From Lachnospiraceae bacterium (GTDB lineage: Bacteria; Bacillota; Clostridia; Lachnospirales; Lachnospiraceae), in contig JAJQBQ010000044.1 of NCBI GenBank assembly GCA_021203205.1, positions 149,630 to 173,629 of the forward strand: a stretch of 24,000 nt of DNA, given 5' to 3'. Positions 8,479-24,000 of this stretch are shown here, in pieces. Both the position numbers and the translations under genes were made by a program. The first letter of the stretch is position 1; every line of letters begins with the position of its first letter. The notes under the pieces are model-generated. The model was given only the letters and a program-made list of their open reading frames with translations. It was not told where the DNA came from and made no database searches.

Positions 8479-8661
8479 ATTTTAATTATCACCTCAATCC
8501 TGTAAAAGTGTTTGCCTGTAATTATAAATGATTCAGCTTGTAAAATCAACTGTTCATTTGTCTTTGTGTCTATTCACGGTTTAGACAGTAAGATTACTTA
8601 AGGCTGACCGCGGATAACGGAAAAGGACGATAAATAATTATCGAATTACAATAAATTTATA

Positions 8662-8690
8662 TTGACATTCGAATGGCCGTGTGCTAATAT
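8662..8690 (+). promoter_or_regulatory. Strong sigma-A-type promoter with an extended -10
   Basis: TTGACA (8662-8667) is followed by a 17-bp spacer and TGcTAATAT (8682-8690). It lies about 170 nt upstream of the DUF2975 start. Confidence 0.6.
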
Positions 8691-8863
8691 CCCTTTATAC
8701 CCATGACAGCGGGTTATTGGTGGTGGGTCGAGGTCAAAAGTATGACAGCACAGATTGCCCCACGTTCCCGTGACCCTGGTGTCATATAAATGAAAACTCG
8801 TGGTGAAAAATTAAGTGGAGTCGCTGTAGGGCCTGGTACAGCGATTGCTCGGAGGAAACGCAA

Positions 8864-9340: not shown

Positions 9341-9623
9341 CAGCAGGGTTCAAAAATGAAGTTAACGCGTAAGCACAGGAGTTTTGCAGAGCAGAACTTA
9401 TTTCAGAAATTTGAAGTTTACTTCCCGGATTCTGGAGTGAACGACTTTTGCGTAAGCACATAAGATCAGCGAAGCTGATCTTAGTGACATTCAGCAGAGA
9501 TGAAGTCGAATGTCGCTTAAGTATCGTTTTATGGAACTCATGTGGTTACGCATTACTGAAGAAAATGCTTTACATTTTCTTTGGAAGGATCCTGTTGAGT
9601 CACATCGTAATAGGAGGAAACTC

Positions 9624-9845
9624 ATGGAAGGCGAAATTATTTTTAATATCGATGTGATGCTCGCAAAGAGGAAGATGAGCGTGACCGAGCTGTCAGAGCG
9701 CGTCGGCATCACGATGGCGAACGTGTCGATCCTCAAAAACGGGAAGGCTAAAGCGATAAAAATATCTACGCTCTTAAAACTCTGTGAGGCGCTGGACTGC
9801 CAGCCGGGTGATTTGCTGGAATACAGGAAAGGCGGTGTGGAATGA
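9624..9845 (+). CDS. YozG-like small XRE-family HTH transcriptional regulator
   Basis: IIFNIDVMLAKRKMSVTELSERVGITMANVSILKNGKAKAIKISTLLKLCEALDCQPGDLLEY matches the family. The ATG at 9624 has AGGAGG (9612-9617) 6 nt upstream. The track's extension back to 9510 looks non-coding. Confidence 0.8.
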   Translation: MEGEIIFNIDVMLAKRKMSVTELSERVGITMANVSILKNGKAKAIKISTLLKLCEALDCQPGDLLEYRKGGVE

Positions 9846-10309
9846 GGAAACGGAAAGGCCGGATCATCGCGGTGGCAATTCTGATTTTTGCCGTGCTCCT
9901 GGGAATTGCCTGCCTGTGCAGATGGTTTTTCGATTATTCTTCTGTTTTGTATGCAAACTGGGGATTCTCCCTGCCCATAAAAGCCGGTTATTCCGAAATA
10001 TACAGCCGGAGCACCGAAGCATCCTGGCACGGTGACGGGATCCGCTACCATGTCTTTTCCTGTAAAAATACGGAACCTGTCTCTGAAATGTTTGACTGGC
10101 AGCTGACGGAAAGGGCCACGCAGGATTGTGAGAGTTATTCCGAGGCCGTGGAAAAGTGGCTTGCCGAGATTTCGGTGCCGGAGGAGGAGTACCCGGACAT
10201 GGAAGAATGCTGCTGGTGGTATCAGTCGCGGGCAGTTGGCGGCGACGAGATTCTGGTGTTATGGAATGAGAGCGAAGGGAAATTGTATATCGTGGAGTAT
10301 TTTCTGTAG
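9842..10309 (+). CDS. N-terminally anchored protein of unknown function
   Basis: An ATGA overlap with the HTH stop (9842-9845) indicates translational coupling. It has a single N-terminal TM (IIAVAILIFAVLLGIACL). Confidence 0.7.
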   Translation: MRKRKGRIIAVAILIFAVLLGIACLCRWFFDYSSVLYANWGFSLPIKAGYSEIYSRSTEASWHGDGIRYHVFSCKNTEPVSEMFDWQLTERATQDCESYSEAVEKWLAEISVPEEEYPDMEECCWWYQSRAVGGDEILVLWNESEGKLYIVEYFL

Positions 10310-10476
10310 AGATGAAAACCGGAAATATGTGCATGGCATATGGGTTAAAAGCCCGTGAAGCCGTGATGCAGGAAATTTTGAATCCCGACATTACGTGCAT
10401 AAAATGTGCATTTTTGGTTCTACAGATGAATGAGTTGTTCAAAAAGAAAGAGCTTTTTAAAACGAGGAAAAATGCT

Positions 10477-10923
10477 ATGAAAAAAATAAAACACAAGCGT
10501 CTGGTGATAACCTTTGCAGTTCTGGCAGTTCTCGTGCTTCTCGCCGCACTTTTTTGCTGGTGGAATTCACCGGAACAAATCTATGCAAGAAATAAAGAAG
10601 CATTGGAAGAAGCCGTCCAGACGATACAGAAAACAGGGAGTACAAAAGATATCGACATAGGCGGTGTTAGCAGCATTGTTTATCTGTCAGAAGCGGAGAC
10701 AAAGCATCCGGTGATCGAATTTCATACATCTTCCTTTGGCGTTATGCCGCCGGCACCGTATGTGGGCCTGTATTATTCCGTTGACGGCTGTCCGGTCGCC
10801 GATGAGTCAGGCGCAAATCTCATTGCAGACGGAGACAGCTGGCGGTGGGTCGGAACAGGGGATAATAAGGGAACGACCTGGCAGATCGAAGGAAACTGGT
10901 ATGCGTATACGGCGTGGTATTAA
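10477..10923 (+). CDS. N-terminally anchored or secreted protein of unknown function
   Basis: I prefer the ATG at 10477 (MKKIKHKRLVITFAVLAVLVLLAALF), with GAGGA 8 nt upstream. The track's extension back to 10312 has no signal-like features. Confidence 0.65.
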   Translation: MKKIKHKRLVITFAVLAVLVLLAALFCWWNSPEQIYARNKEALEEAVQTIQKTGSTKDIDIGGVSSIVYLSEAETKHPVIEFHTSSFGVMPPAPYVGLYYSVDGCPVADESGANLIADGDSWRWVGTGDNKGTTWQIEGNWYAYTAWY

Positions 10924-11301
10924 TTGCGGTTTTAATGACGAAAGAGCGGAAAATACGAAGAAAGGTGAGGGATAACCTTTGTGGTCAGCAGAGAGCATGA
11001 GCAGGCACGGACACATAAGGCAACCATGGATCGTTACACTCTTTGACTGTGACGTAAAACAGGACTTATTTATTCACAGCAATAAAAAAGCGTATTTATG
11101 TTAATTAAAAAAGCTTGCGCCAAACCATCGAATGTGTTAGGATTACCGCAGGAAGCAGGGGAAGGCACCCATAAGAAAAAACGAAATACTTCCGGGAAAT
11201 ATGCGAGCGACAATAGGAAATGAAACACGAATTTTGTTCATTTGTTTTTGCCGCTTGTGTCAGACAATCTTATATGGCATCAATGCAAGGGGGAGACACC
11301 C

Positions 11302-11991
11302 ATGGATAAAAATGTGATTGTATTTGATGAGCATGAGAACGAAATCGGGACGACCTGGCTCAAACGGGCGAGGGGGCTTGTAAAGAAAGGCAGGGCGTGC
11401 TTCGTTTCGGAAAATGCGATTCGTCTTACGTCCGTGCCGGAATATAATATGGAGGACGATAAGATGTCAAAAAATAGAATCGAACCAATGGAAAATATAG
11501 ATGCCGCCAACGAGGCTGCGGTGGAGATGAAAACCGCGGCACAGGCATCGCCAGTGAACAGCACAGAGGAAGCCGCAGGTGTTGCAGCGCCTGAAAATCG
11601 CTATACATTAGCGTATGCTTTAGAGCAGATTGCGGCAATTCAGAAGCAGAACGAAGAACTGGATGGTTTGCTCCGCGAATTCCTGGATGAGTATATTCGC
11701 GGTCGTGAGGGCGAGCAAAAGCCTGAGGGAGATAGAGCTGCTCTGGCTGCGGAGGCATTTCGGGATACGGTGAAGTGCCGTGAGACGACGAACCAGCAGC
11801 TGCTCAGGTTCTATGAAAAGATGTACGATGACCTTAGAAGTGTTTCCGCACAGGATATCCTGAATGCGAAGAAAAACATGATAGAGAAGAACCTCGATAC
11901 CATTGGCTATCTTGGCGTTAATGAATTTGACGTGAACAGAGTCATGGATATGTACAACGCGGCGCAGGATACGATCCGCAGGATGGGATAA
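11302..11991 (+). CDS. Hypothetical protein with a PLMP/RRXRR-like N-terminal motif and a helical C-terminus
   Basis: The ATG at 11302 has GGGGGAG 6 nt upstream. The N-terminus reads NVIVFDEHENEIGTTWLKRARGLVKKGRACFV. The remainder is an acidic linker followed by predicted helices. Confidence 0.65.
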   Translation: MDKNVIVFDEHENEIGTTWLKRARGLVKKGRACFVSENAIRLTSVPEYNMEDDKMSKNRIEPMENIDAANEAAVEMKTAAQASPVNSTEEAAGVAAPENRYTLAYALEQIAAIQKQNEELDGLLREFLDEYIRGREGEQKPEGDRAALAAEAFRDTVKCRETTNQQLLRFYEKMYDDLRSVSAQDILNAKKNMIEKNLDTIGYLGVNEFDVNRVMDMYNAAQDTIRRMG

Positions 11992-12027
11992 TTTGACAGC
12001 AGCATAATTGATTTTAAATTTATGGGA

Positions 12028-12052
12028 CCTGCCGCTTGCGGCAGGTTCTTTT
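12028..12052 (+). terminator. Rho-independent terminator
   Basis: The stem pairs CCTGCCG (12028-12034) with CGGCAGG (12039-12045) around the loop CTTG. It is followed by TTCTTTT. Confidence 0.75.
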
Positions 12053-12075
12053 AAACAAACGCATATTTATACAAC

Positions 12076-12110
12076 AAAAACTGGGGCAGATAATATCAGT
12101 TATCTGCCCC
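12076..12110 (-). terminator. Rho-independent terminator for minus-strand transcription
   Basis: A perfect 11-bp stem pairs GGGGCAGATAA (12083-12093) with TTATCTGCCCC (12100-12110) around a 6-nt loop. On the minus strand it is followed by AGTTTTTGTTGT. Confidence 0.7.
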
Positions 12111-12392
12111 ACAAAAATTCATGGAATAGGCAGGGTGGCAATCCTGCATCTCTTTTAAGACCACTTGGGCGTGACGGCTGCCTGTTCCGTCCTCAGATTC
12201 CATAAAAAAGTCTGTGCCTTACAAAGGTTTATTATACTTTTTTTGGCTGAATTGTCAACGGTTAATTTTTGTATTTTGCTTTTGCTTTTTGATTAGTTGT
12301 TTAATGCGTTAACATTGATTGACTCAGATACCAAAAGTTGATTTACGAATTATCCTGCGCTTCGCGCCATTTAATCTTATAAATATTATGAT

Positions 12393-12860
12393 TCAGTCAC
12401 TCAATTTATTAGTCCATTTCCAGGCACGGCCTTTCTCCAGATAATTTGTTAACTGTGCATCCATGAGAGGATACATGGTTCTGTACGATAATTTCCCAGT
12501 AACGGAAATTCGTACAACTACTGCAATGTGATCAGAAAAGTCTTTGATAAAAGAAATACTGCTATCTTTAGGGTGGATAGCCAGATAATCTGGATTCTGA
12601 ATGATATCAGGTATGCTTTCCAAAGCATTAAGGTATGCAGTATCAGACATAAAATCATTTTTATGACGCTCTGTATGAAGCAGACGGTCTTTCCAGAAAA
12701 CGATATCTGTTTCAGATGACAAAACAGATGCCAAAGAAGGAGATTTTTCTTTTAAAAAGTTTACAATATCAGAAGAAATACGTCCAATTCTAACATATTG
12801 TATGTTAGAATCAGCAAAGCTTTCTGTAGAAAACTTTTGATGAAAGCTATCTACTTGCAT
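12393..12860 (-). CDS. Putative BECR-fold (Barnase/EndoU/colicin E5-D/RelE-like, PBECR-type) nuclease domain protein
   Basis: The RBS AAGGAGGTGAT is strong. The motifs DIVFWKDRLLHTERHKNDF and IPDIIQNPDYLAI resemble my memory of PBECR-family toxin domains. The family call is tentative and the CDS call is solid. Confidence 0.45.
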   Translation of the reverse strand: MQVDSFHQKFSTESFADSNIQYVRIGRISSDIVNFLKEKSPSLASVLSSETDIVFWKDRLLHTERHKNDFMSDTAYLNALESIPDIIQNPDYLAIHPKDSSISFIKDFSDHIAVVVRISVTGKLSYRTMYPLMDAQLTNYLEKGRAWKWTNKLSD

Positions 12861-12901
12861 GTTTAATCACCTCCTTTGAGAATCGAACTAATGTTCGCGC
12901 A

Positions 12902-12930
12902 ATTGTATCATGGAAGAGTATCTATGTCAA
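12902..12930 (-). promoter_or_regulatory. Near-consensus sigma-A promoter for the BECR-like gene
   Basis: On the minus strand, TTGACA (12930-12925) is followed by a 17-bp spacer and TGaTACAAT (-10 at 12907-12902). Confidence 0.6.
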
Positions 12931-13043
12931 GGACAAGTTTTTAGAAAAGTCTTGTATTCCAAATTGAGTGTAGCCGTATACTTTCCCCTAATCCAACCAG
13001 TCAGGAGGTTTCCCGAAGTTTAAATACAAATACTATAATTTAC

Positions 13044-13071
13044 TTGACATCAATACACAAACATGTAAAAT
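13044..13071 (+). promoter_or_regulatory. Sigma-A-type promoter for the primase-helicase gene
   Basis: TTGACA (13044-13049) is followed by a 16-bp spacer and TAAAAT (13066-13071). It lies 60 nt upstream of the ATG at 13131. Confidence 0.55.
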
Positions 13072-13130
13072 TCACTTCATATCCAAAGCCACCATAAATC
13101 ACGCGCATCAGAAAGGATAAGAGGCTCCAC

Positions 13131-16100
13131 ATGAACGAAATTGAAAGTCTGAAAATACGGGTATCCCAGCTTGAGAAGGAAAATGAATATCTGCGAACTC
13201 TGTTGACAAATGCCGGAATCTCTTTCGAGTCAGAAGACAAATCAACGAAATGTGATAAATATGATCCGAACCAGGGAAGCCGTATCATTCCCAAAACGGA
13301 ATTCACTACGGATGATGCGAATGATTTTTTTGTGATGTTTCGCGGTCGGATGGATTTATACAGCAAGCGTACCGTCTCAAAAGCGAAAGGAACAGCCGAT
13401 TATTATCCCCAGTGTCATAAGATCTGGCAGGAGGGATGCCCGAAAAAAGAAGATAAGAAATTTCAGTGCAGCAAGTGCAAGTCGCCTGCATTTATCAGGT
13501 TGGGAAAGGAACAGATTTTCGCGCATCTAAAGGGTTTATCGAAAACTGCAGAGGATGTCATCGGAATCTATCCCCTTTTTCCGGATGATACGTGCCGATT
13601 GATTGTGTATGATTTTGATAACCACGAAGCGGGAGCTGATAAACATGATTTTGCAAATACGGATGATTCCTGGATGGATGAGGTGAATGCGCTTCGCGAA
13701 ATTTGCAGGGTGAACGGAATCGACGCGCTGGTGGAGCGTTCCAGATCGGGCAGAGGCGCACATGTATGGATTTTCTTTCAGGGGAAAATAGAGGCCAGCC
13801 TTGCCAGAAAGTTTGGGTTTATGCTTCTCGGAAAAGGAGCAGAGTCTGTTGATCTGAAAAATTTCAGGTATTATGATCGCATGTATCCGATGCAGGATCA
13901 TTTACCGGAGGGCGGTTTTGGAAACCTGATTGCGCTGCCGCTGCAGGGGCAGGCGCTGAAAAACGGAAACAGCGCGTTTGTTGATGAACACTGGAATGCG
14001 TATCCGGATCAGTGGGCGGTGTTGAGGTCAAAGAGAAGATTAAGCAGGGATTTTATCGAAGAAAAAATAAAGGAATGGAGTATGCAGACTTCCATTCCGT
14101 CCATTCCATTGGATGAGATATCTGAGAAAACAAATGAGAAGCCGTGGAACAAATCGAAGAGCTTTCAAATGGAAGATGTAAAAGGAGCGCTTCATATTTC
14201 ACTGGCGGATGCGGTTTATGTAAAAACATCGAACCTCACCCCCAGAATCCGTAATCAAATTCGGAGACTGGCAGCTTTTAGCAACCCGGAATTCTATAAA
14301 AATCAGGCGATGGGATTATCGAACTTTAAAAACTCCAGTTACATTTATCTGGGGGAAGATGCCGATGGGTATATCCGAATTCCCAGGGGATTGTTGGATA
14401 ATCTTAAAGAAAATTGTGAGAATGCAGGCATTCCTTACGAAATCGAAGATCATCGCTGTGCAGGGCATGATATAAAAGTAAAATTTACCGGAAATTTAAA
14501 AGAATCTCAGATCACAGCGGTTCAGGCGTTGGAAAAGTATGATACCGGAATTTTACATGCGGCCACGGCGTTTGGAAAGACAGTAGTCTCCTGTGATATG
14601 ATCGCGCGAAAACATGTAAATACGCTGATTCTATTGCAGAACTCGACACTGATGGAGCAGTGGGAAAAAGCGATAGAGAACTTTTTGGAGATTGATGAGG
14701 AACCACCGGAATATCAGACACCGAGTGGGAGAACCAGAGTTCGGAAAAGCGTGGTCGGTCGTCTGCAGGGAGCCCACGATTCTACAACGGGGATCATTGA
14801 CATTGCAATGGTTGGCTCTTTATGTAAGAAAGGGATATTCCATGAAAAGCTCAAACAATATGGAATGGTCATCCTGGATGAGTGCCATCACGCTGCTTCA
14901 GATACAATTGTGGATGTCTTACAGGAAGTACGTGCGAAATACGTGTATGGTGTAACTGCGACTCCGAACAGAGGTGACAGGCTGGAAAAGATAAATGAAA
15001 TGCTGTTGGGGAGAGTTCGCTACCGATTTACTTCGAAAGATCGCGCCAGGGAGCAGGGGATTGCACACCTGGTTGTTCCACGCTTTACCAGAGCGGTAGC
15101 CCCAAGATTTGGAAATGACAGAATGCACCCGAATGAAGCATATGAACTTTTAAGAAACAATGAGGATCGGGATGAGATGATCCTGTGTGATGTTCGAAAA
15201 TGTGTGGAAAGCGGACGGACGCCGGTCATCCTTTCAAGATATGTTGATCATTCGCGCAAATTATATGAGCGTCTGCAAGGGTGCGCAGATCGGATATTTT
15301 TACTGTCCGGCGAGAATTCTAAAAAGGAACATCGGAAAATCATAGAGCAGATGAACCGTGTGTCAGCAGACGAAAGCATGATATTGATCGGAACAGGCAA
15401 ACTGGTCGGCGAGGGATTTGATTTTCCACGATTGGACACGCTGATCATGGCAACGCCGGTATCTGGAAAAAATGTCGTGGAGCAATATGCCGGGCGTCTG
15501 AACAGAGATTATGAGGGGAAAGAGGATGTCATAATCTATGACTATGTGGACATTCATATCAGTGTGTTTGAAAAAATGTATAATAAGCGGCTGAAAGCCT
15601 ACCGACAGATTGGGTATGACATGTATACGGAAACACGAATAATGAAAGAAAAGGGTAAGAAGAAAAGCGAAGGAAAAGATGAGGGGAAAGACGAAGGTGG
15701 CAACGATAGAGAAGATGAGTCAGCACAGAGTCCCGGTGCTATCTATGATGCGGGAAATTATCTTGAAAGATACAGGCAGGATCTGTGCCGGGCTGGAAGT
15801 GAAATCATCTTGTCAAGCCCGGTAATCAGTAGCGGGAAAGTAGATGAACTCATTGAATGGCTCCAGGAAAAGCAGCAAAGCGGCGTGAAGGTTCACATCG
15901 TCACATGGAAACCGGACATGTATGGTTTCGGAGACAGCGCGTACTGGATGGAATTGCAGGAGCGAATGCGGAACGCGGGATTTGAGATGAACCTGGTTGA
16001 AGATTACTGCCTGCACTATTGTATTGTTGACAGGGAATTGGTCTGGTACGGGAGTATGAATTTCCTTGGAAAGGAAGACACAGAAGATAATCTTATGAGA

Positions 16101-16178
16101 GTGTGCAATAAAAGTATTGCGGCAGAATTGCTGGAGATGACTTTTGGAGATGGAAATTATTGGGGAGAACGGATGTGA
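13131..16178 (+). CDS. Multidomain protein: coiled coil + 4-Cys ribbon + AEP/PrimPol-like domain + SF2 DECH-box helicase + C-terminal degenerate PLD-like domain
   Basis: AEP-like motifs are LIVYDFDNHE (DxD, nt 13611-13619), ERSRSGRGAHVWIFF and GGFGNLIALPLQG. Helicase motifs are AATAFGKTV (I), ILDECHH (II, nt 14877-14888), GVTATPNR (III), GEGFDFPRLDTLIMATP (V) and QYAGRLNR (VI). The C-terminus has LHYCIVDRELVWYGSMN, an HKD-like motif with K replaced by C. Confidence 0.85.
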   Translation: MNEIESLKIRVSQLEKENEYLRTLLTNAGISFESEDKSTKCDKYDPNQGSRIIPKTEFTTDDANDFFVMFRGRMDLYSKRTVSKAKGTADYYPQCHKIWQEGCPKKEDKKFQCSKCKSPAFIRLGKEQIFAHLKGLSKTAEDVIGIYPLFPDDTCRLIVYDFDNHEAGADKHDFANTDDSWMDEVNALREICRVNGIDALVERSRSGRGAHVWIFFQGKIEASLARKFGFMLLGKGAESVDLKNFRYYDRMYPMQDHLPEGGFGNLIALPLQGQALKNGNSAFVDEHWNAYPDQWAVLRSKRRLSRDFIEEKIKEWSMQTSIPSIPLDEISEKTNEKPWNKSKSFQMEDVKGALHISLADAVYVKTSNLTPRIRNQIRRLAAFSNPEFYKNQAMGLSNFKNSSYIYLGEDADGYIRIPRGLLDNLKENCENAGIPYEIEDHRCAGHDIKVKFTGNLKESQITAVQALEKYDTGILHAATAFGKTVVSCDMIARKHVNTLILLQNSTLMEQWEKAIENFLEIDEEPPEYQTPSGRTRVRKSVVGRLQGAHDSTTGIIDIAMVGSLCKKGIFHEKLKQYGMVILDECHHAASDTIVDVLQEVRAKYVYGVTATPNRGDRLEKINEMLLGRVRYRFTSKDRAREQGIAHLVVPRFTRAVAPRFGNDRMHPNEAYELLRNNEDRDEMILCDVRKCVESGRTPVILSRYVDHSRKLYERLQGCADRIFLLSGENSKKEHRKIIEQMNRVSADESMILIGTGKLVGEGFDFPRLDTLIMATPVSGKNVVEQYAGRLNRDYEGKEDVIIYDYVDIHISVFEKMYNKRLKAYRQIGYDMYTETRIMKEKGKKKSEGKDEGKDEGGNDREDESAQSPGAIYDAGNYLERYRQDLCRAGSEIILSSPVISSGKVDELIEWLQEKQQSGVKVHIVTWKPDMYGFGDSAYWMELQERMRNAGFEMNLVEDYCLHYCIVDRELVWYGSMNFLGKEDTEDNLMRVCNKSIAAELLEMTFGDGNYWGERM

Positions 16179-16309
16179 GGAGTTAATGCAGAGTGACATG
16201 AAAGGAAAAATCAGAATTACATCTTTACTTTTTAAGAGAATGATTTTATACTGATTTTTGGGCATAGGAGTTCGCAAAATAGCGAGATGAAAGAAAGTGG
16301 GATATAAAT

Positions 16310-16519
16310 ATGACCGATAAGCAGAGAGAAATGATTGAGTACACGACACAGGATATTATCGCGTTCATTATGGAGGACAAAAACCTGAATATGGATGAGG
16401 CAATGGAGTTGTTTTATACATCTGTGACATTTGAAAAGCTTACAGATATAGAAACAGGTCTATATTTACAGGGTTCATCGTATGTCTATGAATTGTTTAA
16501 CAGGGAGCATAGGCACTGA
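16310..16519 (+). CDS. Small helical protein, tentatively DUF3791-like
   Basis: The 69-aa ORF stops 27 nt before the next gene's start. Its pattern ...DEAMELFYTSVTFEKLTDIETGLYLQGSSYVYELF loosely recalls DUF3791. The family call is weak. Confidence 0.5.
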   Translation: MTDKQREMIEYTTQDIIAFIMEDKNLNMDEAMELFYTSVTFEKLTDIETGLYLQGSSYVYELFNREHRH

Positions 16520-16546
16520 AAATCAGATAAAACGGGAGGAACGAGT

Positions 16547-18328
16547 ATGGCGCAGCGAACCGTATGTCTGTGTGACGGAAAATATGTAGGAATCGAGACG
16601 ATTTTCACGGTTGTCGACGGCAGGCAGATCAATATTCCGGGAAAGGTAGAGGAACTTCGTGCCAGAAGCCGGAAGAACGAATTGTTTTGTCCCTGTGGCT
16701 GCGGGTCCAACCTGATCCTTGTGGCCGGGGACAAAAACCTCCGTGAGCAGCATTTTCGCCTGAAAGACGGCGCATCGAATGCGAATTGCAGCGCGGTCAC
16801 GGAGGGCAACATATCGCTGAATTCCAAAATTGTTCTGAAATGCTGGCTGGACGACAAGCTTCACGCCACAGACCTGGAGACGCGTGTACCGGTCCGGTCA
16901 CTGGAAAACGGATCCTCGAATTCAAAAAACGGCGGCAGGAAGTATGAATTTTCCTTCCTTTCAGCAGAAAAGAAAATTGCGCTGAGTTACACGCATGAGA
17001 GAGCGAATCTCTCTGATGAAAAGTTTGATGCGTTGGAAAGTAATCAGCAGGAAATTCAAATCCTGTATGTGGTGGATGAGGCAAACAGCGGAAATACCGG
17101 CCAGTACCCGGAGGGGCTGATGAAGATTCAGAGGCGGCAGGGTCACCTTCTGTTTCTGAATATCAAGGGCTCGAATTATGCGGAGGCAACCCTGCATGCG
17201 GCTTTCTATGAGAAGGATATCGATGGACACTGGCAGGAACTCACGTTTGCGGAGGATGCACTGCCGCAGTTTGATATTGACGAGAACGGCGTAGTTATTT
17301 ATGCGGGAAAAGCGCTGGAACTGTATCGGGAAGATGTCCGCGACAGTTTTCGGGCAACACAGGAAGAATTAAAAAAAAGACGCGAGGAGGAAAGAAGACG
17401 CAGGGAACTTGAAGAAGAGAGGAGGAAGCAAAGGGAGAGGGAACGGCTGATTTGGGAGGAGGAGCAAAGGCGAGCCAGACGGCAGCGGGAAGAGGAAGAA
17501 AGACGAGCCAAGATACAGCAGGAGGAAGAGGAGAGACGGGCCAGAGAGTTACAGGAAGAAGAGGAAAGACGGGCATGGATGCTTCTATCGGAGGAAGAAA
17601 GGCGGGCTCGGAGACAGAAGGAAGAGGAAGAAAGACAGGCCAGAATACTGCAGGAAGAGGAAGAAAGGCGAATTCAGGCGCAGCAGGAAGAGGAACTTAA
17701 GGCGGCCCGGAAACTCCGCGAAGAAGAAGAGAGGCGACAGCGGGAAGAAGAGAGAAAACAGAGGAAAGTCGAAAATGAGCGGCTCTGGGAAGAAGAGATG
17801 GATCGCCAGAGCCTGGAACGGGCGAAAAGACGCCAGGAAGCCGCAGAGTATAGGGAAAAACGGCGGGATGATATAGAAAAGGAAAGGCAGCGCCTGGAAG
17901 AAGAGTATCAGCGACATTTAGCCGAAAGCAGGCGTCGGCGGGCGGAGCAAGAAGCCGAGGCCAGAAAACGGGACGAGGATTTCCGGCACAATATGGAGGC
18001 GCAGTTTTCACAGCAGGAACGACCGGTTTATGACCGCGATGGAAACCGCTGGATCCGCTGTGAATTTTGCGGAAAAATTGACCGGGACAGCAATTTTGTT
18101 TCCTACGGCGGGAAAAATCATGTGAATCTTGGAACCTGTAAAGAGTGCGAGTCGAACAACCCGGCGGTGCGGGAAAAGGCGGCCGCCGCGAAAATGCAGG
18201 CGGCCAGACGGCGCGACCAGAATACCTGCCCGGAGTGCGGCGGAACGCTGACCTTGAGGAATGGGCGGTTTGGCAGCTTTTATGGGTGCAGCAACTTTCC
18301 GGCGTGCAGGTATACCAGGAGAGCATAG
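16547..18328 (+). CDS. CoiA-like N-terminal domain / roughly 200-aa ER/K charged helix / two C-terminal zinc ribbons including a topoisomerase-type C4 finger
   Basis: The RBS GGGAGGA lies upstream. [29 protein letters not shown] resembles the CoiA N-terminal Cys-rich motif ...FFCPxCG...HFAHK. Residues 271-478 are almost entirely E, R, K and Q. CEFCGK...CKEC forms one ribbon. [30 protein letters not shown] is a zf-C4_Topoisom-like finger. Confidence 0.8.
17357..17980 (+). repeat. In-frame purine-rich coding repeats, with 33-bp / 11-aa EEEERRAxxxQ-type units in the core
   Basis: Successive units read [56 protein letters not shown] and [25 protein letters not shown](A/G)C recurs at about 33-nt spacing between roughly 17490 and 17700. 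Confidence 0.8.
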
Positions 18329-18340
18329 GGGATAATTTGA

Positions 18341-18374
18341 CTGCTGTAAAATTTGCTGTTGATTTTTACAGCAG
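18341..18374 (+). terminator. AT-rich hairpin, a possible weak terminator after the 593-aa gene
   Basis: A perfect 11-bp stem pairs CTGCTGTAAAA (18341-18351) with TTTTACAGCAG (18364-18374) around a 12-nt loop. Only ATTT follows, so terminator strength is doubtful. Confidence 0.35.
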
Positions 18375-18481
18375 ATTTGACTAGACTAACATCGAACGTG
18401 TGGAGAATGAGGCTGCAGTTTTATGGATGCTGTCTATATATGCTGAGCCTCGAAAATTGATATGAGTTTTGGAGGAAAACA

Positions 18482-18721
18482 ATGCCAAATATAAAACCAG
18501 TTTCTGATCTGCGCAATTATACAGAAGTACTACACGATGTAGCCTCCGGCTCTCCGGTTTTTCTTACAAAAAACGGACGGGGACGTTATGTGATTCTTGA
18601 CATGCAGGATTATGAAAAGTCTCTGGCCATGCAGAGACTTGCGAATGAGCTTTCGAAAGGGAAAAAAGCAGGAGAAGAACAGGGGTGGATTTCATCGGAT
18701 GAGATGAGAAGCCATTCGTGA
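18482..18721 (+). CDS. Phd/YefM-family type II antitoxin
   Basis: The RBS GGAGG (18471-18475) lies 6 nt upstream. MPNIKPVSDLRNYTEVLHDVASGSPVFLTKNGRGRYVILDMQDYE is a typical Phd/YefM N-terminus. Confidence 0.8.
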   Translation: MPNIKPVSDLRNYTEVLHDVASGSPVFLTKNGRGRYVILDMQDYEKSLAMQRLANELSKGKKAGEEQGWISSDEMRSHS

Positions 18722-18735
18722 AAGAAGGTGGAATA

Positions 18736-18957
18736 ATGAAGCGGGAAGATTATATTTCCGATGAGGAAGTTGTAAAAAGAGCTTGCGCGGCAGTAAAAAT
18801 TGAGCTGGAGAAGAAAGAAGTATTAGGGATACCGGCTGTAATATATGACCGAAAAACACAAAAAATTTATCACGTTTATGGGGATGGAACAAAAGTAGAA
18901 ATTGCCGATCGGTTAAGGAAGGGGCGTTACAGTGAGCAAATCAAACAGGAAGCCTGA
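18736..18957 (+). CDS. Small protein of unknown function between the antitoxin and the zeta-like ATPase
   Basis: The ATG at 18736 has GAAGGTGGA upstream; the alternative GTG at 18718 overlaps the Phd stop. It is 73 aa and I recognise no family. Its 3' end overlaps the next gene by 26 nt. Confidence 0.55.
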   Translation: MKREDYISDEEVVKRACAAVKIELEKKEVLGIPAVIYDRKTQKIYHVYGDGTKVEIADRLRKGRYSEQIKQEA

Positions 18958-19525
18958 AGTTATCGTGTTTTGCGGGCCAAACGGATCAGGAAAAAGCACG
19001 TTAACTGAACTGCTGAAACCTCCTGTGGATTACATTAATGCAGATGAGATAAAGAAGAATTTGAAGTGCACGGATCTTGAAGCAGCGCAAATTGCTGAGA
19101 AACAAAGAGAAGAACACCTCAGTCGTAGGGAAGAGTTCTGTTTCGAAACGGTTTTATCAACGGACAGAAATCTGAATCTGCTAAAAAGAGCGCGAGAACA
19201 GGGATATTTTATACGATGCTATTATGTATTAACGGCCGACCCGCTTATTAACGTTTTTCGTGTCAGATCCAGAGTCGAGGCGGGAGGGCATGATGTGCCT
19301 GAGGAAAAGATCATTTCAAGGTATGACAGAGCGCTTGCCCTGGTGAAAGAGGTAGTAAAAGTAAGTGACATATGCCATATCTATGACAATTCAGGAGATT
19401 ATCCATTTCGCATATTCAAGAAACAAAAAGACATAAATTATTATGATGAATGCGAGGACTGGCATCTTGAAGATATTGAGGTGTTGACCGGAATCTGTGA
19501 GATGGAAAAGAAAAATCTAAATTAA
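18932..19525 (+). CDS. Zeta-toxin-like P-loop kinase/ATPase (COG4185-type)
   Basis: The start is GTG. The Walker A motif is VIVFCGPNGSGKSTL. YINADEI, FETVLS and RVRSRVEAGGHDVPEEKIISRYDRAL match my recollection of the COG4185/zeta family. Confidence 0.75.
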   Translation: MSKSNRKPEVIVFCGPNGSGKSTLTELLKPPVDYINADEIKKNLKCTDLEAAQIAEKQREEHLSRREEFCFETVLSTDRNLNLLKRAREQGYFIRCYYVLTADPLINVFRVRSRVEAGGHDVPEEKIISRYDRALALVKEVVKVSDICHIYDNSGDYPFRIFKKQKDINYYDECEDWHLEDIEVLTGICEMEKKNLN

Positions 19526-19631
19526 AATATGATTTTTTTGAATATATTGATTACGTGATATTGGCGAAAATACGAGCTGACAGGATCAATTAGTTACCAT
19601 TCCTATCAGCAGATGAAGAAGCAAATTATTG

Positions 19632-19658
19632 GGGCTGACCGTAAGGTCAGTCCTTTTT
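19632..19658 (+). terminator. Rho-independent terminator
   Basis: A 9-bp stem pairs GGGCTGACC (19632-19640) with GGTCAGTCC (19645-19653), including one G-U pair, around the loop GTAA. T5 follows at 19654-19658. Confidence 0.75.
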
Positions 19659-19846
19659 ATCGGGAAAACAAGAAAAACTTCTGAACGGTTTCATAGCAAG
19701 GATTTCTGTCAGGTATCCGTATTGTTTGTGCTGGTTAAGTTGGCTACATTGAAAACCGTGTAAATAACGGCATCTCAGAGCGCTCTAATTCACCGTGCAG
19801 TATGCACTGAGTCGCCAAGCTCTACACCTTATGGCTATACAGAAAT

Positions 19847-19906
19847 AAAAAGTAGAATTTTAAATGAAAAAGTAGTTGACAATCAGGGCTCGGGGGGGGG
19901 TATAAC
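19847..19906 (+). promoter_or_regulatory. Promoter of the surface-protein genes with upstream direct repeats and a G9 tract in the spacer
   Basis: AAAAAGTAG occurs at 19847-19855 and again at 19867-19875, exactly 20 bp apart. TTGACA is at 19876-19881. The 19-bp spacer contains G9 (19892-19900). TATAAC is at 19901-19906. Confidence 0.55.
19892..19900 (+). repeat. Homopolymeric G9 tract
   Basis: I counted it directly: cggggggggg is one C followed by nine G. Confidence 0.95.
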
Positions 19907-19959
19907 ATAATTATTATAAGGCATTTATTGCCAGTTTTTTTCAAGGAGGAAAAGAAGAA

Positions 19960-21210
19960 ATGAGACAACAGAAGAAGTTATCTATGAAGGCGGCCGGAGT
20001 ACTTGTGCTGGCATGCTTTATCGCTGTTATGGCGCTTGGAACCATGACGGTGCGGGCAGACTCGTATGAGGATTGGCTGGAGGAGTATGCGACAGATGTT
20101 GACGGCACATACACCCTCACACTGGACGAGACATTAACGATTGATATTCCATCGGGAGCAGCTTTACAGTATACATTTACTCCTGAAGCAGATGGACAGT
20201 ACACATTTGATATGCAGGTGACAATCATATTTTGTGATGGTACTACAATCGATGATTATTCTATGGTCTGGGAGCGGATACCATATTATCTGGATGAAGA
20301 TGGTAAAATTTGCGCTCTTTATCCTAGCGGAGACGATGGCTCCAGCGTGTTTCTGAGCGATGATGATCTGTTTGATATGCTGGCAGGTGAGACATATTAT
20401 TTTTATTTCATTGTTGACTATGTATTTGATTATACTGAAGAGGATGCTCCCGCTCAGTCGATTATTACGGTTACTGCTACCTGCGTAGATTCAGATGATG
20501 CGACAACGACTTCAACCACAGTGGCAGATGATTCGTCATCCACTGATGCAGCAGATGATGATACAGCAGATGATGATGCAGCAGCTACGACTGCTGAGCT
20601 TGCGGCTGCAGATAAGAATGGAACTGTAATCTCGGTATATTCCAGCGAAGATGCTGCGGCAGCCGATGGCAGAACGGATGGCTATCTTGTCATTACAGCA
20701 TCGACGGAGACGGTGGATCTGACGGATGCAGACATATCCGCCATCATTGAAGCACAGATCGCCAGCGATACGGATGCGTCTGCAGACGAAATAGAAGTTC
20801 TTGAAGTAGTAGAAGTATATTATGTGGGTGATGAAAGTGCTCTGGATTTTCCGCTTACCCTTACATTTAAAGCAGACGGTGTAACGGCAGAAAATTTTGT
20901 CGGGACTCTGCACAAAGTGGATGGTGTATGGACTGCAGAAGAGGCAAGTGTTGAAACAGACGGAAGTGTGGTTGTGACAGTGAATTCTTTAAGCCCGTTT
21001 GCATTCCTTGTAAGCAGTACGGAGACAGAAGAAAATTCCACGACGGCAGAGGAGGAAGAAGGAGCAACAACTTCGGCAACTGCCACTACGGAAAGCTCAA
21101 ATCAGCAGGCGAGCAATACAGCAGACGTTTCTGTATGGGTATACCTGGTAATTCTCGCAGGCGCAGTGGTTGGTGCAGTGGTGATTGCAAAGAGGAGAGT
21201 GGAAGAATAG
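19960..21210 (+). CDS. Secreted, highly acidic surface protein with a C-terminal membrane anchor
   Basis: The RBS AGGAGG is at 19944-19949. A signal peptide (LVLACFIAVMALGTMTVRA/DS) is present. Low-complexity D/T/A/S-rich regions follow. The C-terminus reads ...SNTADVSVWVYLVILAGAVVGAVVIAKRRVEE, a TM segment with a basic tail. Confidence 0.8.
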   Translation: MRQQKKLSMKAAGVLVLACFIAVMALGTMTVRADSYEDWLEEYATDVDGTYTLTLDETLTIDIPSGAALQYTFTPEADGQYTFDMQVTIIFCDGTTIDDYSMVWERIPYYLDEDGKICALYPSGDDGSSVFLSDDDLFDMLAGETYYFYFIVDYVFDYTEEDAPAQSIITVTATCVDSDDATTTSTTVADDSSSTDAADDDTADDDAAATTAELAAADKNGTVISVYSSEDAAAADGRTDGYLVITASTETVDLTDADISAIIEAQIASDTDASADEIEVLEVVEVYYVGDESALDFPLTLTFKADGVTAENFVGTLHKVDGVWTAEEASVETDGSVVVTVNSLSPFAFLVSSTETEENSTTAEEEEGATTSATATTESSNQQASNTADVSVWVYLVILAGAVVGAVVIAKRRVEE

Positions 21211-21243
21211 ACAGGCAGGCGTTAACAGAATAGAGATTATTTG

Positions 21244-21290
21244 AAAGGGAGATGGCGCTGGCACTGCGGTGCCAGAAGCGGTCTCCCTTT
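21244..21290 (+). terminator. Strong nested hairpin between the two surface-protein genes (terminator or attenuator)
   Basis: The outer stem pairs AAAGGGAGA (21244-21252) with TCTCCCTTT (21282-21290). The inner stem pairs CTGGCAC (21258-21264) with GTGCCAG (21269-21275) around the loop TGCG. The only T-run is part of the stem. Confidence 0.5.
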
Positions 21291-21345
21291 AGACGCTGAT
21301 ATGTGAGCGACAATTAGGTGGTAAAAGAAAAAGGGGAGGAATTTT

Positions 21346-24000
21346 ATGAAACAAAACATGAAACGACTGGCCGCATTGGCGCTGGCATTGTCCATGTGCC
21401 TGTCCCTGCTGTTCAACAACGCCTGGATGGCGGAAGTCTCCGGGTACACCGAGGATGATTTTGTAGTCGAATCAACGACAGATATCGATTCGTCCGATGC
21501 AGAATCGGAGGAATACGGTGAAGTTCTCGAAGTGGAAGCGGATGCCGCCGAAGAGGAAGGCGCTGACAATATTCCTGACGATGCGCTTTCTTATAATGGC
21601 CATTACTATTACTTTTATGATGAAGCATGTACATGGTGGGATGCAAAAGAGTACTGTGAGTCAGTTGGTGGTTATCTTGTGACAATTACGACAGAAGACG
21701 AACAGAATGCCGTATATTGCTATGTAGAGGAACTCGCCGGCGATGAAGATATTTGGATTGGGATCACCGACTCAGGTACAGAAGGGGACTGGTCTACATG
21801 GATAACAGGAGAGGCCGTCACCTATACAAACTGGGGTGAAAATGAGCCTGATGATCTCGGTGGTCAGGATTATGGTGTGATTTGTACTGGATACCGAGAT
21901 GGAGGAAGTGTCTATTATATCGAACCGGCCCAATGGGATGATGTCAGTGACACAGATAATCACTTTCTTTGTGAGTGGGGTGATCTCGATGACAGCAGCG
22001 GGTCGGAGGAAGAAGATGGTCAAGATTCCAGCGCTGATTACACGTGGGTCTTTGGTCAAGATAATTTCAGCTTTTTGAACTCGAAGAAGAGTTTTGGGAG
22101 TGGAGAATATTATATCGAAGACGAAATGTTCTATTCTTATTTGGAAACCTTGACGAAAACACAAGTAATCAGAATAGCTAACGCTTATGGCGCCTATTCA
22201 TGGCTTTGGACTTATCGCAGCAAAAGAACTGTTAGATTGGAAAACTTCCTGAAGAACGAACTGGTTAATTTTGACGGTTCCTGTTACGGTATGTGCCTGG
22301 TGGCCACACTGATTAAGACAGGCAATCTTTCAGCAGAAGACCTGGGAGCCGCGACAACTTATGAACTGGGACCATTGAGCAAAGACGAAAATACCGAATT
22401 GGAATCCATCATTAATCTCTATCTAATTTCTCAGTATGTGGATACAGGCTTTGATGGTGCTGAAAAAGGAGAGGAAGATTTCGCTGAGCAAATGGAACAT
22501 ATTTGGAATGTTGCTACGACAATCGGTAGCGGGGAGCAGCCATTCCTTATGTGTTTGCATAGCGAAAGTGGTAACCATGCGGTGGTTTGTTACGGGGCAG
22601 AAACCGGTGATTTTTCCACAGGTGCTCTCTGGTGGAAGAACGAATATGATAAGCGGCTACTTATCTATAATCCTAATTCTGATAATGCAGATTATATTTA
22701 CATCAGTGAGGATTTCAGCAATGCTGAGTTGGGTAGCGATTCTGCTTATACTGGCTTTTATATCATATACGGGCTTACAGATGAAAACAATTGGAACACC
22801 TTTAGTGAATATTTGGATATTCCCCATTATGTTTATCTGGACGTGGATAATCAAAGCCTTCCAAATTATACCATCAATGCATCCGATGGCACTTATGCAA
22901 CCATTTCTAACGGTTCAGTTATAGGCGGAACTTTAGATGTGAGTATTGGCTGGGTTGCTGGAGAGTTGGCCGATGGCGAAGAAGCGGAAAATAGTTTTTA
23001 TACCGTGTGTTTACCAGATACCAGTGATTATTATACACTATCTTCTGCAGATGGAGAGTCCTTGGATGCGCTCCTGACTTATGACGATTTCTCAGTAGGT
23101 ATAAACGGAGCATTTGAGAGTGCAACAATTTACTCAAATGGAACTGTCGATATTCAAGATGGAGAAGGTGACTTGGCAGTCAACATTACTTTCAACGACA
23201 GTGATTTTGGGTATGTCAGCATTGTCGGTGAGTTAAATGGTGACGTTTTATTCCAAATCATAGATGATACCATCTACATTATTGGCGACTTGTCAAATTA
23301 TCTTGTAGAGAATATGGACAACAACTATGAGACATCTACGGTTTACGTGGAAGATGATATAGATGTTCAGGCTTTGATGGAAGATGATACAGTCGTGCTC
23401 TACGAAGATACCGACGGTGACGGAGAATATGAAACAAGTCTGCCTCATACTCATTACTATATTTACACAGATAATGGCGATGGCACTCATACCGCAACCT
23501 GCATCGGGGATGACGACAATTTCACAGAGGCACACACCTGGGACGAAGGGAATGTTACAATTGAACCTACTTGCATCGAGGAAGGCGTAATGACCTACAC
23601 TTGCTCTGTCTGCGGCGAAACCAAAACAGAGGCTATCGCAGCCACCGGCCACACTTGGGATGAAGGTGTAATGACACAGGAGTCTACCACTGAAACGGAA
23701 GGTGTGATGACCTACATCTGCACGGTATGCGGTGAGACCTGCACCGCGTTTATTGCGGCTTTGGAATTTGAGCAGGAGGGTGGTGGAGAGAATACCGGGG
23801 AGGATGCGGGTGAAACAAGCTGCTCATCTAAAACCACTTCTTCCAAAAATGAATCTTCCGAGAGCAGTCCCTCCAAGAGCGAGACATCTGTAGTCAAGAC
23901 CGGGGACAGTGCGAACCTGATTCTGTGGGAAGTGCTGGCAGGGATTGCTCTGCTGGCGATGGCCGCGATTCTGCTGACCAAACGCACGATTCAGCCGTGA
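21346..24000 (+). CDS. Secreted surface protein: C-type lectin domain + papain/C39-like cysteine-peptidase-like domain + Cys-rich HTWDEG repeats + LPXTG-like (VVKTGD) sorting signal
   Basis: The RBS GGGGAGGA lies upstream and a signal peptide is present. CTLD motifs are WIGITD, EPD, WDD and FLCEW (aa 80-211). GSCYGMC and NHAVVCYG are Cys/His candidates. There are two HTWDEG...GVMTYxCxVCGET repeats. The C-terminus reads VVKTGDSANLILWEVLAGIALLAMAAILLTKRTIQP. The stop codon falls at 23998-24000. Confidence 0.85.
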   Translation: MKQNMKRLAALALALSMCLSLLFNNAWMAEVSGYTEDDFVVESTTDIDSSDAESEEYGEVLEVEADAAEEEGADNIPDDALSYNGHYYYFYDEACTWWDAKEYCESVGGYLVTITTEDEQNAVYCYVEELAGDEDIWIGITDSGTEGDWSTWITGEAVTYTNWGENEPDDLGGQDYGVICTGYRDGGSVYYIEPAQWDDVSDTDNHFLCEWGDLDDSSGSEEEDGQDSSADYTWVFGQDNFSFLNSKKSFGSGEYYIEDEMFYSYLETLTKTQVIRIANAYGAYSWLWTYRSKRTVRLENFLKNELVNFDGSCYGMCLVATLIKTGNLSAEDLGAATTYELGPLSKDENTELESIINLYLISQYVDTGFDGAEKGEEDFAEQMEHIWNVATTIGSGEQPFLMCLHSESGNHAVVCYGAETGDFSTGALWWKNEYDKRLLIYNPNSDNADYIYISEDFSNAELGSDSAYTGFYIIYGLTDENNWNTFSEYLDIPHYVYLDVDNQSLPNYTINASDGTYATISNGSVIGGTLDVSIGWVAGELADGEEAENSFYTVCLPDTSDYYTLSSADGESLDALLTYDDFSVGINGAFESATIYSNGTVDIQDGEGDLAVNITFNDSDFGYVSIVGELNGDVLFQIIDDTIYIIGDLSNYLVENMDNNYETSTVYVEDDIDVQALMEDDTVVLYEDTDGDGEYETSLPHTHYYIYTDNGDGTHTATCIGDDDNFTEAHTWDEGNVTIEPTCIEEGVMTYTCSVCGETKTEAIAATGHTWDEGVMTQESTTETEGVMTYICTVCGETCTAFIAALEFEQEGGGENTGEDAGETSCSSKTTSSKNESSESSPSKSETSVVKTGDSANLILWEVLAGIALLAMAAILLTKRTIQP

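Follow-up and report, generated by a model that had tools for sequence, protein, structure and literature searches.

Does a dense run of conflict-type genes on a bacterial contig make up a multi-gene defence system, or is it a collection of pieces which arrived and act separately? This question is raised by a stretch of 24,000 nucleotides from a Lachnospiraceae bacterium (assembly GCA_021203205.1, contig JAJQBQ010000044.1, positions 149,630 to 173,629 of the forward strand), referred to here as the window, in which the region of 12.1-19.7 kb carries seven protein genes (g1 to g7) and a small structured RNA gene. A first-pass annotation, made from the letters alone, had described this region as an AT-rich, defence-island-like block that may form one or more multi-gene systems, and had considered the genes between 13131 and 18328 (g2, g3 and g4) consistent with one operon. 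The open reading frames (ORFs) that it named are all present where it placed them. In the comparison with approximately 250 related loci, the block is best read as a patchwork of five separable cassettes, moving and working independently in the style of a defence island, a reading to which we give a probability of roughly three in four. What was observed directly are the domains of the proteins, the conservation of their motifs and which partners are present or absent in related loci; the biochemical activities are all predicted.

The giant, g3 and g4 in other genomes

The giant (g2; 13131-16178, plus strand) is a protein of 1015 amino acids that combines a primase-polymerase (AEP) domain, an SF2 helicase and a PLD-fold domain. 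It is followed on the same strand by g3 (16310-16519), which encodes 69 amino acids, and by g4 (16547-18328), which encodes a CoiA-like, coiled-coil and zinc-ribbon protein of 593 amino acids. The gaps of 131 and 27 nucleotides were given correctly in the first-pass annotation, and a terminator scan of 13131-18328 predicts no terminator. The intergenic stretch 16179-16309 is without significant structure, no terminator-like site precedes a weak hairpin at 18341-18374, and another assembly of this organism shows no difference in the arrangement. All of these features would suit a three-gene defence operon, the products of which cooperate.

The distribution of the three genes in other genomes points the other way and makes such an operon highly improbable. 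The giant was followed by tblastn in 80 genome loci, with homologues 48-75% identical and up to 10 kb of flank on each side. None of the 80 carries a relative of g1, g3, g4, g6 or g7, with the reservation that strongly diverged g3-like genes beside other giants could escape a tblastn search with a query of just 69 amino acids at E <= 1e-3; a Phd-like gene is found in just four. Relatives of g4 stand alone with their own upstream gaps in the five places that were read, i.e., after the BREX genes PglX, PglZ and BrxL (L003), after McrBC (L004 and L005) and among housekeeping genes (L006 and L007), and neither a giant nor g3 is present in any of them. The claim of a multi-gene system at 13131-18328 thus fails by a refuting condition that the first-pass annotation had itself set, since relatives of g2, g3 and g4 do not co-occur in the other genomes compared. 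Moreover, the GC content of the three genes is sharply unequal (45% in the giant, 38% in g3 and 53% in g4), and g3 has a promoter-like site ahead of it (16224-16252).

The relatives of g3 have a constant context of their own. Just eight are known at 90% clustering. In every place read outside this organism the relative, 65-75% identical to g3, overlaps the end of a DUF3990 gene, and the cassette to which the relatives belong, DUF3791-DUF3990-C, is seen whole in the complete contigs L090-L093. In the PADLOC models, g3 matches PDC-M13C (4e-28), and the genes of a cassette with a g3 relative match PDC-M13 A (3e-31), B (6e-44) and C (4e-25), respectively. With the C gene from one complete PDC-M13 cassette, g3 shares 72% identity. 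Searching the window by tblastn with the A and B proteins revealed neither a DUF3791 (A) nor a DUF3990 (B) gene. Since both are absent, g3 is by homology an orphan, the third gene of what PADLOC lists as the candidate system PDC-M13, and it would be the leftover of a DUF3791-DUF3990-C cassette. The likeness to PDC-M13 lies in the match of g3 to the C gene; the differences are the missing A and B genes and the position of the C gene downstream of a giant.

The former description of g3 as a DUF3791-like protein had to be abandoned. It has no Pfam match even at E <= 1 and no BLASTP similarity to a genuine DUF3791 protein, and its only link to that family is the distant one through the PADLOC model.

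DUF3990 genes also occur just upstream of giant homologues, in four loci (L002, 7189-7809; L016, 9394-9585; L018, 8384-8872; L041, 9109-9489). This suggests that the giant has repeatedly been inserted into or beside DUF3990 cassettes, and in the window it precedes the orphan g3.

Read-through from the giant into g3 and g4 is nevertheless plausible because of the short gaps and the absence of a predicted terminator, and so is their co-transcription. Any shared transcript of this kind would be an accident of juxtaposition and not the product of a conserved system. The hairpin after g4, reported as weak by the first-pass annotation, is indeed so: it has an AU-rich stem and a poor U tail, it folds with -14.9 kcal/mol (z = -2.2), and the terminator scan missed it. 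It is possibly a leaky terminator.

Several points weigh against the patchwork, in addition to the reservation given above for the g3 search. The same short gaps and the lack of a predicted terminator between the genes mean that a coupling of g2, g3 and g4 which is functional in this lineage only may exist, and only a single organism, represented by two assemblies, is known to have this gene order. Any anti-phage role of the block is drawn only from family membership and neighbourhood, and no complete known defence system is recognised in it by the PADLOC models. Furthermore, the giant may not be fully self-sufficient, because a Schlafen/AlbA_2-type gene, which frequently accompanies its homologues, is missing in the window.

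The kinase pair and the PBECR3 gene with its RNA

The first-pass annotation had paired a Phd-family antitoxin (g5) with a zeta-like kinase (g7). The latter (18932-19525, plus strand) encodes a short P-loop kinase of 197 amino acids that belongs to the zeta-toxin family (Zeta_toxin, 36.9 bits vs. a cut-off of 22.3; AAA_33 is matched too) and has the Walker A motif GPNGSGKST. Its relatives, 71-80% identical, were examined in a metagenome scan of 80 loci. In every one of them a g6 gene lies directly upstream of g7, overlapping it in nearly all, and a Phd gene is present in none of the 68 g6-g7 loci with enough upstream sequence. g6 (18736-18957, plus strand) encodes 73 amino acids, its gene call comes from an identical Logan contig, and it does not appear in the first-pass annotation; in the window its end overlaps the start of g7. 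On the grounds of these counts, which rule out a Phd-zeta pair, the true kinase pair is taken to be g6-g7 and g5 to be a stray gene.

g6 has no match in Pfam or PADLOC, including the epsilon and PezA families, and as the conserved upstream partner of g7 it is a putative antitoxin. Homologues of g7 are found on 496 plasmids, mostly annotated as "zeta toxin family protein" among the records listed, and both of the plasmid records inspected have a small overlapping ORF upstream. Similarly to the epsilon/zeta and PezAT systems, g7 is a zeta-family P-loop kinase with a Walker A motif and the Asp of an "INADE" motif, a small gene in translational overlap with it comes first, and plasmids often carry members of its family. 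On the other hand, with its 197 amino acids g7 is shorter than Zeta and PezT, which have a length of roughly 250-290 amino acids, and g6 matches neither epsilon nor PezA. The two genes would form a plasmid-type toxin-antitoxin-like pair, composed of a small protein and a short zeta-family kinase, with a stray Phd-type gene ahead of them. An intrinsic terminator (19631-19654, plus strand; terminator scan, fold z = -3.2) closes the g5-g7 unit.

The Phd assignment of g5 (18482-18721, plus strand; 79 amino acids, Phd/YefM-type antitoxin-like) is itself marginal, with 26.4 bits in Pfam, below the cut-off of 29.8, and 23.3 bits for NCBIfam TIGR01552, above the cut-off of 20.8. No cognate Doc, YoeB or ParE-type toxin gene lies directly downstream, where g6 and g7 are located. 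The closest relative of g5, 69% identical (L069), is followed by a gene that reads by eye as a ParE-type toxin and has no PADLOC match.

In three of the 80 metagenome loci g6-g7 adjoins a giant homologue (L160, 3790-7535; L162, 4-3590) or a degraded one (L163, 3109-4579). The order of the kinase pair and the giant in these three is the opposite of that in the window.

At the other end of the block, g1 (12393-12860, minus strand) encodes a PBECR3 protein of 155 amino acids (PF18812, 1.1e-15; 58 bits vs. a cut-off of 30 bits). Across 14 relatives H66 is invariant and H62 nearly so. The gene is monocistronic, with a promoter-like site of its own at 12902-12930 in the promoter scan, and it has no match in cultured phage genomes. 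Judged by its family, the product is a stand-alone, toxin-like protein of BECR fold and probable RNase type.

The first-pass annotation did not contain a skipping-rope RNA (Rfam RF02924) that lies downstream of g1 and, like it, on the minus strand (12123-12201). It is a full-length match (model positions 1-80 of 80) with 59.3 bits in cmscan against a gathering score of 36.7 (E = 4e-12). A promoter-like site (12231-12258, minus strand; TTGACA, 16 nucleotides, TATAAT), which agrees with the consensus in 12 of 12 positions, ends 29 nucleotides before the RNA. An intrinsic terminator (12111-12082, minus strand), composed of a 12-bp stem and a T run, starts 11 nucleotides 3′ of the motif, and the fold of 12078-12224 on the minus strand has z = -3.2. 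Because g1 is monocistronic in the window, this RNA is the sole possible partner of g1 there.

The link between the gene and the RNA was approached from both sides. On the protein side, a profile built from the 14 relatives of g1 (alignment A4) retrieved 26 viral loci with 26-54% identity, and all 26 have a skipping-rope RNA above the Rfam gathering score just downstream, on the same strand as the g1-like gene. On the RNA side, a degenerate skipping-rope pattern retrieved 57 viral contigs. A g1-like ORF lies within 1.5 kb of the RNA in 25 of these, on the same strand in 24, mostly 51-76 nucleotides upstream. Separate transcription of the RNA would also be a property of the pair, since a near-consensus promoter-like site follows the PBECR3 stop codon, ahead of the RNA, in 12 of the 13 non-redundant loci that have this gene, as against 3 of 22 among the other skipping-rope loci. 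Gene and RNA are 191 nucleotides apart in the window vs. approximately 50-80 in most viral loci.

The genes upstream of PBECR3 in the viral loci are diverse, often XRE repressors, and no conserved protein partner or antidote was found there among the loci compared. Integrase-like genes are located downstream of skipping-rope in roughly 20 of the 57 viral contigs. The pair would consist of an RNase-type, toxin-like gene followed by a same-strand, separately promoted and terminator-ended structured RNA, and elsewhere it would be a prophage cargo module near the repressor and integrase end.

From this linkage we infer that the skipping-rope RNA modulates the PBECR3 nuclease; it would control or neutralise the enzyme, or serve as its cofactor. 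That it acts specifically as the antidote is a tentative idea. Equally tentative is the wider proposal that the two represent a new toxin-antitoxin or abortive-infection class, in which a complex-folded, separately transcribed RNA of about 80 nucleotides directly inhibits a BECR-fold RNase. The RNA could do so, e.g., as a substrate mimic or a decoy, and phage infection would then free the nuclease.

The comparison with type III toxin-antitoxin systems (ToxIN-like), in which an RNA neutralises a protein endoRNase, is instructive in both directions. Here too a gene for a small RNase-type protein is in obligate linkage with a non-coding RNA gene that ends in a terminator of its own, the pair is carried by mobile elements and there is no conserved protein antidote. 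On the contrary, skipping-rope is a single complex fold and not a tandem repeat array, it is placed downstream of the protein gene with its own promoter and not upstream, and the protein has a BECR fold instead of the ToxN/AbiQ type. No tandem repeats occur in 12000-13130. A type I-like mechanism, with the RNA acting as an antisense to the g1 mRNA, was rejected, as duplex energies against the 5′ region of the gene had z values of -2.1 to +1.4 in five loci, with no consistent site.

It is also possible, though again rather doubtful, that the RNA is functionally unlinked to PBECR3 and is a small RNA of prophage ends, e.g., a regulator of lysogeny or integration, which shares a preferred cargo site with that gene. 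Such an explanation would account for the RNA-side count, in which fewer than half of the viral skipping-rope loci have the gene within 1.5 kb, and for the remaining loci, which have SocA/Panacea-domain, Abi_2, T5orf172, methylase, portal or other genes upstream. Integrases and XRE repressors as common neighbours of skipping-rope would fit it as well. The protein-side link argues for a functional connection, as it is complete down to 26% identity, with a fixed strand and mostly tight spacing. An independent study had also reported a "compelling association" of skipping-rope with a nearby protein, left without a name in its main text (Weinberg et al. 2017, PMC5737381). The same work describes skipping-rope as a conserved RNA with a 3′ rho-independent terminator and no self-cleavage. 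The RNA of the window agrees with that description in its full-length match, in the intrinsic terminator that follows and in the protein gene nearby; what differs is that the partner can here be named, as the PBECR3 nuclease of BECR fold.

In one viral locus (L262), the PBECR3 gene is preceded at a distance of approximately 0.5 kb by a FuFi-1 RNA (674-903, plus strand), and the skipping-rope RNA is followed closely downstream by a 6A RNA (1997-2048, minus strand). Three orphan structured RNAs are thus found within about 1.4 kb.

Domain architecture of the giant and of g4

The giant begins with a coiled coil and a Cys cluster, followed by the AEP domain (residues 65-310; 13323-14060), the SF2 helicase (residues 455-815; 14493-15575) and the PLD-fold domain (residues 883-997; 15777-16121). 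This architecture is common to more than 8000 homologues at 90% clustering. The AEP domain matches Pfam AEP-TOTE (PF22548) with 2.1e-76 over profile positions 5-228 of 230, and its catalytic residues D161, D163, H211 and D249 are invariant in an alignment of 79 relatives. The helicase (ResIII 4e-17, plus DEAD and Helicase_C) has intact motifs, i.e., GKT (Walker A), DECHH, TATP and QYAGRLNR (motif VI, QxxGRxxR).

The PLD-fold domain shows a different picture. Its Pfam score (PLDc_2, 26.5 bits) is just below the cut-off of 27 bits, and the AF2 model of the C-terminal 156 residues (pLDDT 75) has a PLD fold, with Zucchini (3.6e-8) and Nuc (3e-7) as Foldseek matches at probability 1.0. The model also matches non-catalytic PLD-like domains, e.g., those of TrmBL2 and FAM83. 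The motif reads H962-[Y/F]-[A/C]-x2-D967-x6-G-[S/G]-x-N977, with an H-D spacing two residues shorter than the canonical one. The Lys of the HKD motif is absent in all 79 relatives and the His, present in 69, is replaced in 10. Nuclease activity of the giant is doubtful for these reasons.

A Lys/Glu/Asp/Gly-rich insert, KEKGKKKSEGKDEGKDEGGNDRED, lies between the helicase and the PLD-fold domain (residues 837-862; 15639-15716). It is apparently absent from most of the 79 aligned relatives.

We infer that the giant targets DNA as a self-contained enzyme, which would act on invading DNA. The helicase would drive tracking, the AEP domain would prime or synthesise a strand, and the PLD-like domain would bind or cut the DNA. 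No experimental study of AEP-helicase-PLD fusions, and no paper on such fusions as a defence, was found in the searchable literature.

Three known systems come close to the giant. It resembles TOTE systems (TPR, OB, TBP, Effector; Aravind et al. 2022, cited in PMC12458937) in that its AEP domain is a full-length, high-scoring member of PF22548, and differs from them in carrying this domain on one chain with a helicase and a PLD-fold domain, and in standing alone. Its assignment as a TOTE system was rejected, there being no Pfam match to TPR, CSD/S1 or TBP in the scanned ORFs of the window or among the recurrent neighbours of the giant in 84 loci. With the type IV restriction enzymes of SauUSI type it shares the PLD fold and a helicase that matches PADLOC mREase_IV (1e-11) and the SauUSI chain 7clg (1e-7). 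In contrast to SauUSI, the PLD fold is C-terminal, so that the domain order differs, an AEP domain is added and the HKD motif lacks its lysine; a domain for reading modifications was not recognised in the giant. Finally, the AEP domain matches models of CRISPR-associated PrimPol and the chains 7nqd and 7nqf, which we take to be a CRISPR-associated PrimPol deposited under another name; there is no CRISPR locus here.

The most common neighbour of the giant is a SLFN_AlbA_2-HATPase_c_4-wHTH gene, which adjoins it directly in 33 of 84 loci. The strand is the same in all of these; some loci have the gene on either side of the giant, and it is often broken into fragments. It may be a functional partner or mark a preferred insertion site. 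Examples among L009-L088 are those of L047 (8246-9742 and 12939-14546) and L065 (8640-9956). In the window neither a Schlafen/AlbA_2 gene nor a remnant of one was found.

The contexts of the homologues raise the question of whether the giant serves mobile elements instead of defence. As a primase-helicase for the replication or establishment of such an element, it would prime or convert the incoming single-stranded DNA of a conjugative or integrative element. AEP-helicase fusions are classical replication proteins of plasmids and viruses (PMC5862659). In L001 a giant homologue adjoins RepA_N, ParA, ParB and TraG among conjugation genes, and in L008 an integrase; on plasmids, others lie beside a Tn3-type module or an AlpA/YfjI/Gp2 element. 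Homologues are found on 112 plasmids, 47 of them conjugative. The PLD-fold domain, devoid of its catalytic Lys, may also only bind DNA. We nevertheless consider this role unlikely, given that the helicase is of the SF2 ResIII/XPB/SauUSI type and not a replicative SF3, SF4 or MCM ring. Most of the 80 genome loci are without clustered replication or transfer genes, their commonest neighbour being the regulator-like Schlafen/AlbA_2 gene, and no element genes lie beside the giant in the window. The AEP domain, in addition, belongs to a Pfam family defined from the TOTE conflict systems. A giant that acts on invading DNA is preferred here.

More distant homologues, 35% identical, are present on the proteobacterial plasmids pCP127 of E. 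coli EC93 (L235, 6974-9340) and pDSJ06 of Pantoea (L236, 6974-9364). They cover the AEP and helicase portions (residues 1-830) and are without the PLD-fold domain. The one of E. coli EC93 follows AlpA, YfjI and inovirus-Gp2-type genes near cdiBA, and that of Pantoea is placed between a small recombinase gene and a Tn3-type gene.

g4 is organised in three parts. Residues 1-270 include a CoiA-like zinc finger and a restriction-endonuclease-like domain, residues ~271-500 form a Glu/Arg-rich coiled coil, and the C-terminus has two zinc ribbons, the last one being of topoisomerase I type (Zn_ribbon_Top1, 4.4e-15). CoiA_N is matched by g4 itself only at E = 0.08 (residues 35-65), and by 28 of 36 family members, the best at 1.6e-5. 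The AF2 model of residues 1-275 (pLDDT 84.6) has as its best match in BFVD a phage "Competence protein" (E = 1e-5; whole-model TM 0.51), and the next matches are proteins of PD-(D/E)xK/restriction-endonuclease fold. These two results support, at the level of the predicted fold, the label "CoiA-like". Against the PDB, the N-terminal model gave nothing below E = 0.1, g4 has no Pfam match to a CoiA nuclease domain, and a canonical (D/E)xK in the third strand of the family is not evident by eye in alignment A1.

The likeness to the CoiA family thus consists of the N-terminal zinc finger in the g4 family and the structural match to the phage protein. g4 departs from CoiA in its long Glu/Arg coiled coil, in its topoisomerase-type zinc ribbons and in its location beside restriction-type systems and not beside competence genes. 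It would be a single-gene CoiA-like, nuclease-fold, coiled-coil and zinc-ribbon DNA-binding protein.

The N-terminal region of g4 has 1150 relatives, which are typically about 460 amino acids long. g4 exceeds this norm by about 130 amino acids, an excess that lies in the Glu/Arg coiled coil. At 17439-17703 a tandem repeat of 33 nucleotides (11 codons) in approximately six copies encodes a coiled coil of EEEERRA type, and the length of g4 relative to its family indicates that this repeat is expanded in the window.

Composition, boundaries and island context

The block is mosaic in composition. The GC counts of the first-pass annotation in 60-nucleotide spots (23, 23 and 40) were reproduced exactly, and the drop at 12.0 kb is real; the idea of a uniformly AT-rich block does not hold, since g4 reaches 53% GC and the block as a whole 44.9%, compared with 48.7% in the left flank (1-12000) and 45.2% in the right flank (19700-24000). 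Apart from the giant, g3 and g4, the values are 35% for g1 and 40-44% for g5-g7, and the GC content at third codon positions (GC3) ranges from 0.28 in g1 to 0.59 in g4. Such a spread would look like the pattern left by several separately acquired pieces. The two hairpins that had been regarded as terminators bracketing the block do exist, and the left one, as a boundary, has to be discarded, as it belongs to the skipping-rope RNA gene.

A different history would be the arrival of ~12.0-18.35 kb (the RNA, g1, the giant, g3 and g4) in one piece. The segment would then be what decay has left of one end of a prophage or integrative element, inserted with the gene that stops at 11991 on one side and the g5-g7 unit on the other. 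An exact 13-nucleotide direct repeat, GGGATAATTTGAC, occurs only at 11985-11997 and 18329-18341 and is identical in 21 of 25 positions when extended. Both copies are found at a stop codon or immediately behind one, with a hairpin following, and the two bracket exactly these genes. The repeat could be an insertion scar, its length being at chance level. The GC content falls exactly at 12.0 kb, elsewhere the PBECR3-RNA pair belongs to viral contigs, in which integrase-like genes often follow downstream, and giant homologues adjoin integrases and conjugation genes. All the same, a single insertion appears improbable. By our estimate, chance alone would yield one or two exact 13-mer repeats in 14.5 kb, and the repeat finder gave 13 such families. 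Pfam on the larger ORFs of the window and a tRNA scan revealed no recombinase (integrase, excisionase or transposase), phage structural gene or tRNA gene, in agreement with the first-pass annotation as regards integrases and transposases. The segment is itself heterogeneous in GC content, and the other assemblies of the organism provided by a look-up consist of identical contigs only, with no empty site among them. Separate acquisition of the cassettes remains the preferred explanation.

Past g7, the other assembly of the organism (L089 and L234; Logan SRR15221333) breaks just after the gene and resumes 60 nucleotides before the next one (equivalent to ~19527-19900 of the window), perhaps owing to coverage, a repeat or strain variation. 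The gap spans the AT-rich terminator region after g7.

Genes of low GC content or low GC3 also lie on either side of the block. At 19960-24000 a secreted or anchored protein of 416 amino acids, rich in Asp, Thr and Ala, is followed by a protein of at least 884 amino acids with a C-type lectin domain; both genes have a low GC3 (0.38-0.44), similar to that of the block. To the left, at 7442-8478 (minus strand), there is a gene pair of low GC content (41-42% vs. ~50% around it), which comprises an NTP_transf_2-type nucleotidyltransferase of 162 amino acids with weak matches to PADLOC PDC-S09 and an overlapping gene of 183 amino acids with no assigned family. The pair looks like another cassette of toxin-antitoxin type, and with it the accessory DNA may start well to the left of the block as first delimited.

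As for its gene content, the description "defence-island-like" is well founded. Each gene belongs to a conflict-type family, and the domain assignments of PBECR3, AEP, helicase, PLD fold, zinc ribbon and zeta were all recovered. The suggestion of one or more multi-gene systems survives only in the form of two pairs that had not been named, one made up of the PBECR3 gene and the skipping-rope RNA, the other of g6 and g7. In unrelated genomes the cassettes recur, in different orders, beside each other and beside BREX, McrBC, DUF3990 cassettes, integrases and conjugation genes. The occurrence of g6-g7 beside giants and of DUF3990 genes upstream of giants is cassette shuffling within islands. The block shares with defence islands a dense run of conflict-type genes, a mosaic composition and cassettes that recur in other orders, and differs from typical ones in having no complete validated system by PADLOC and no recombinase in the window. 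It is a mosaic of the ordinary defence-island-like sort, built from cassettes of known kinds, for which the multi-gene-system reading is unsupported, and the nuclease-RNA pair is its only interesting component.

That no conserved three-gene unit exists saves cloning effort on the wrong fragment, and two annotations are corrected: the partner of the kinase is the formerly unannotated g6 of 73 amino acids and not a Phd protein, and g3 is an orphan PDC-M13C gene by its homology. The giant offers a compact one-gene candidate, from a very large family, for studying the role of primase-polymerases in defence. What can be used beyond this locus are these corrected pairings and the obligate linkage of PBECR3 and skipping-rope. 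The latter, found in 26 of 26 loci on the protein side, makes the role of the RNA experimentally addressable through a BECR-fold protein of predicted RNase type. If a BECR RNase is indeed inhibited by this RNA, a function would be given to an orphan RNA class known since 2017, and it would perhaps extend to the similar drum, DUF3800-I and FuFi-1 motifs.

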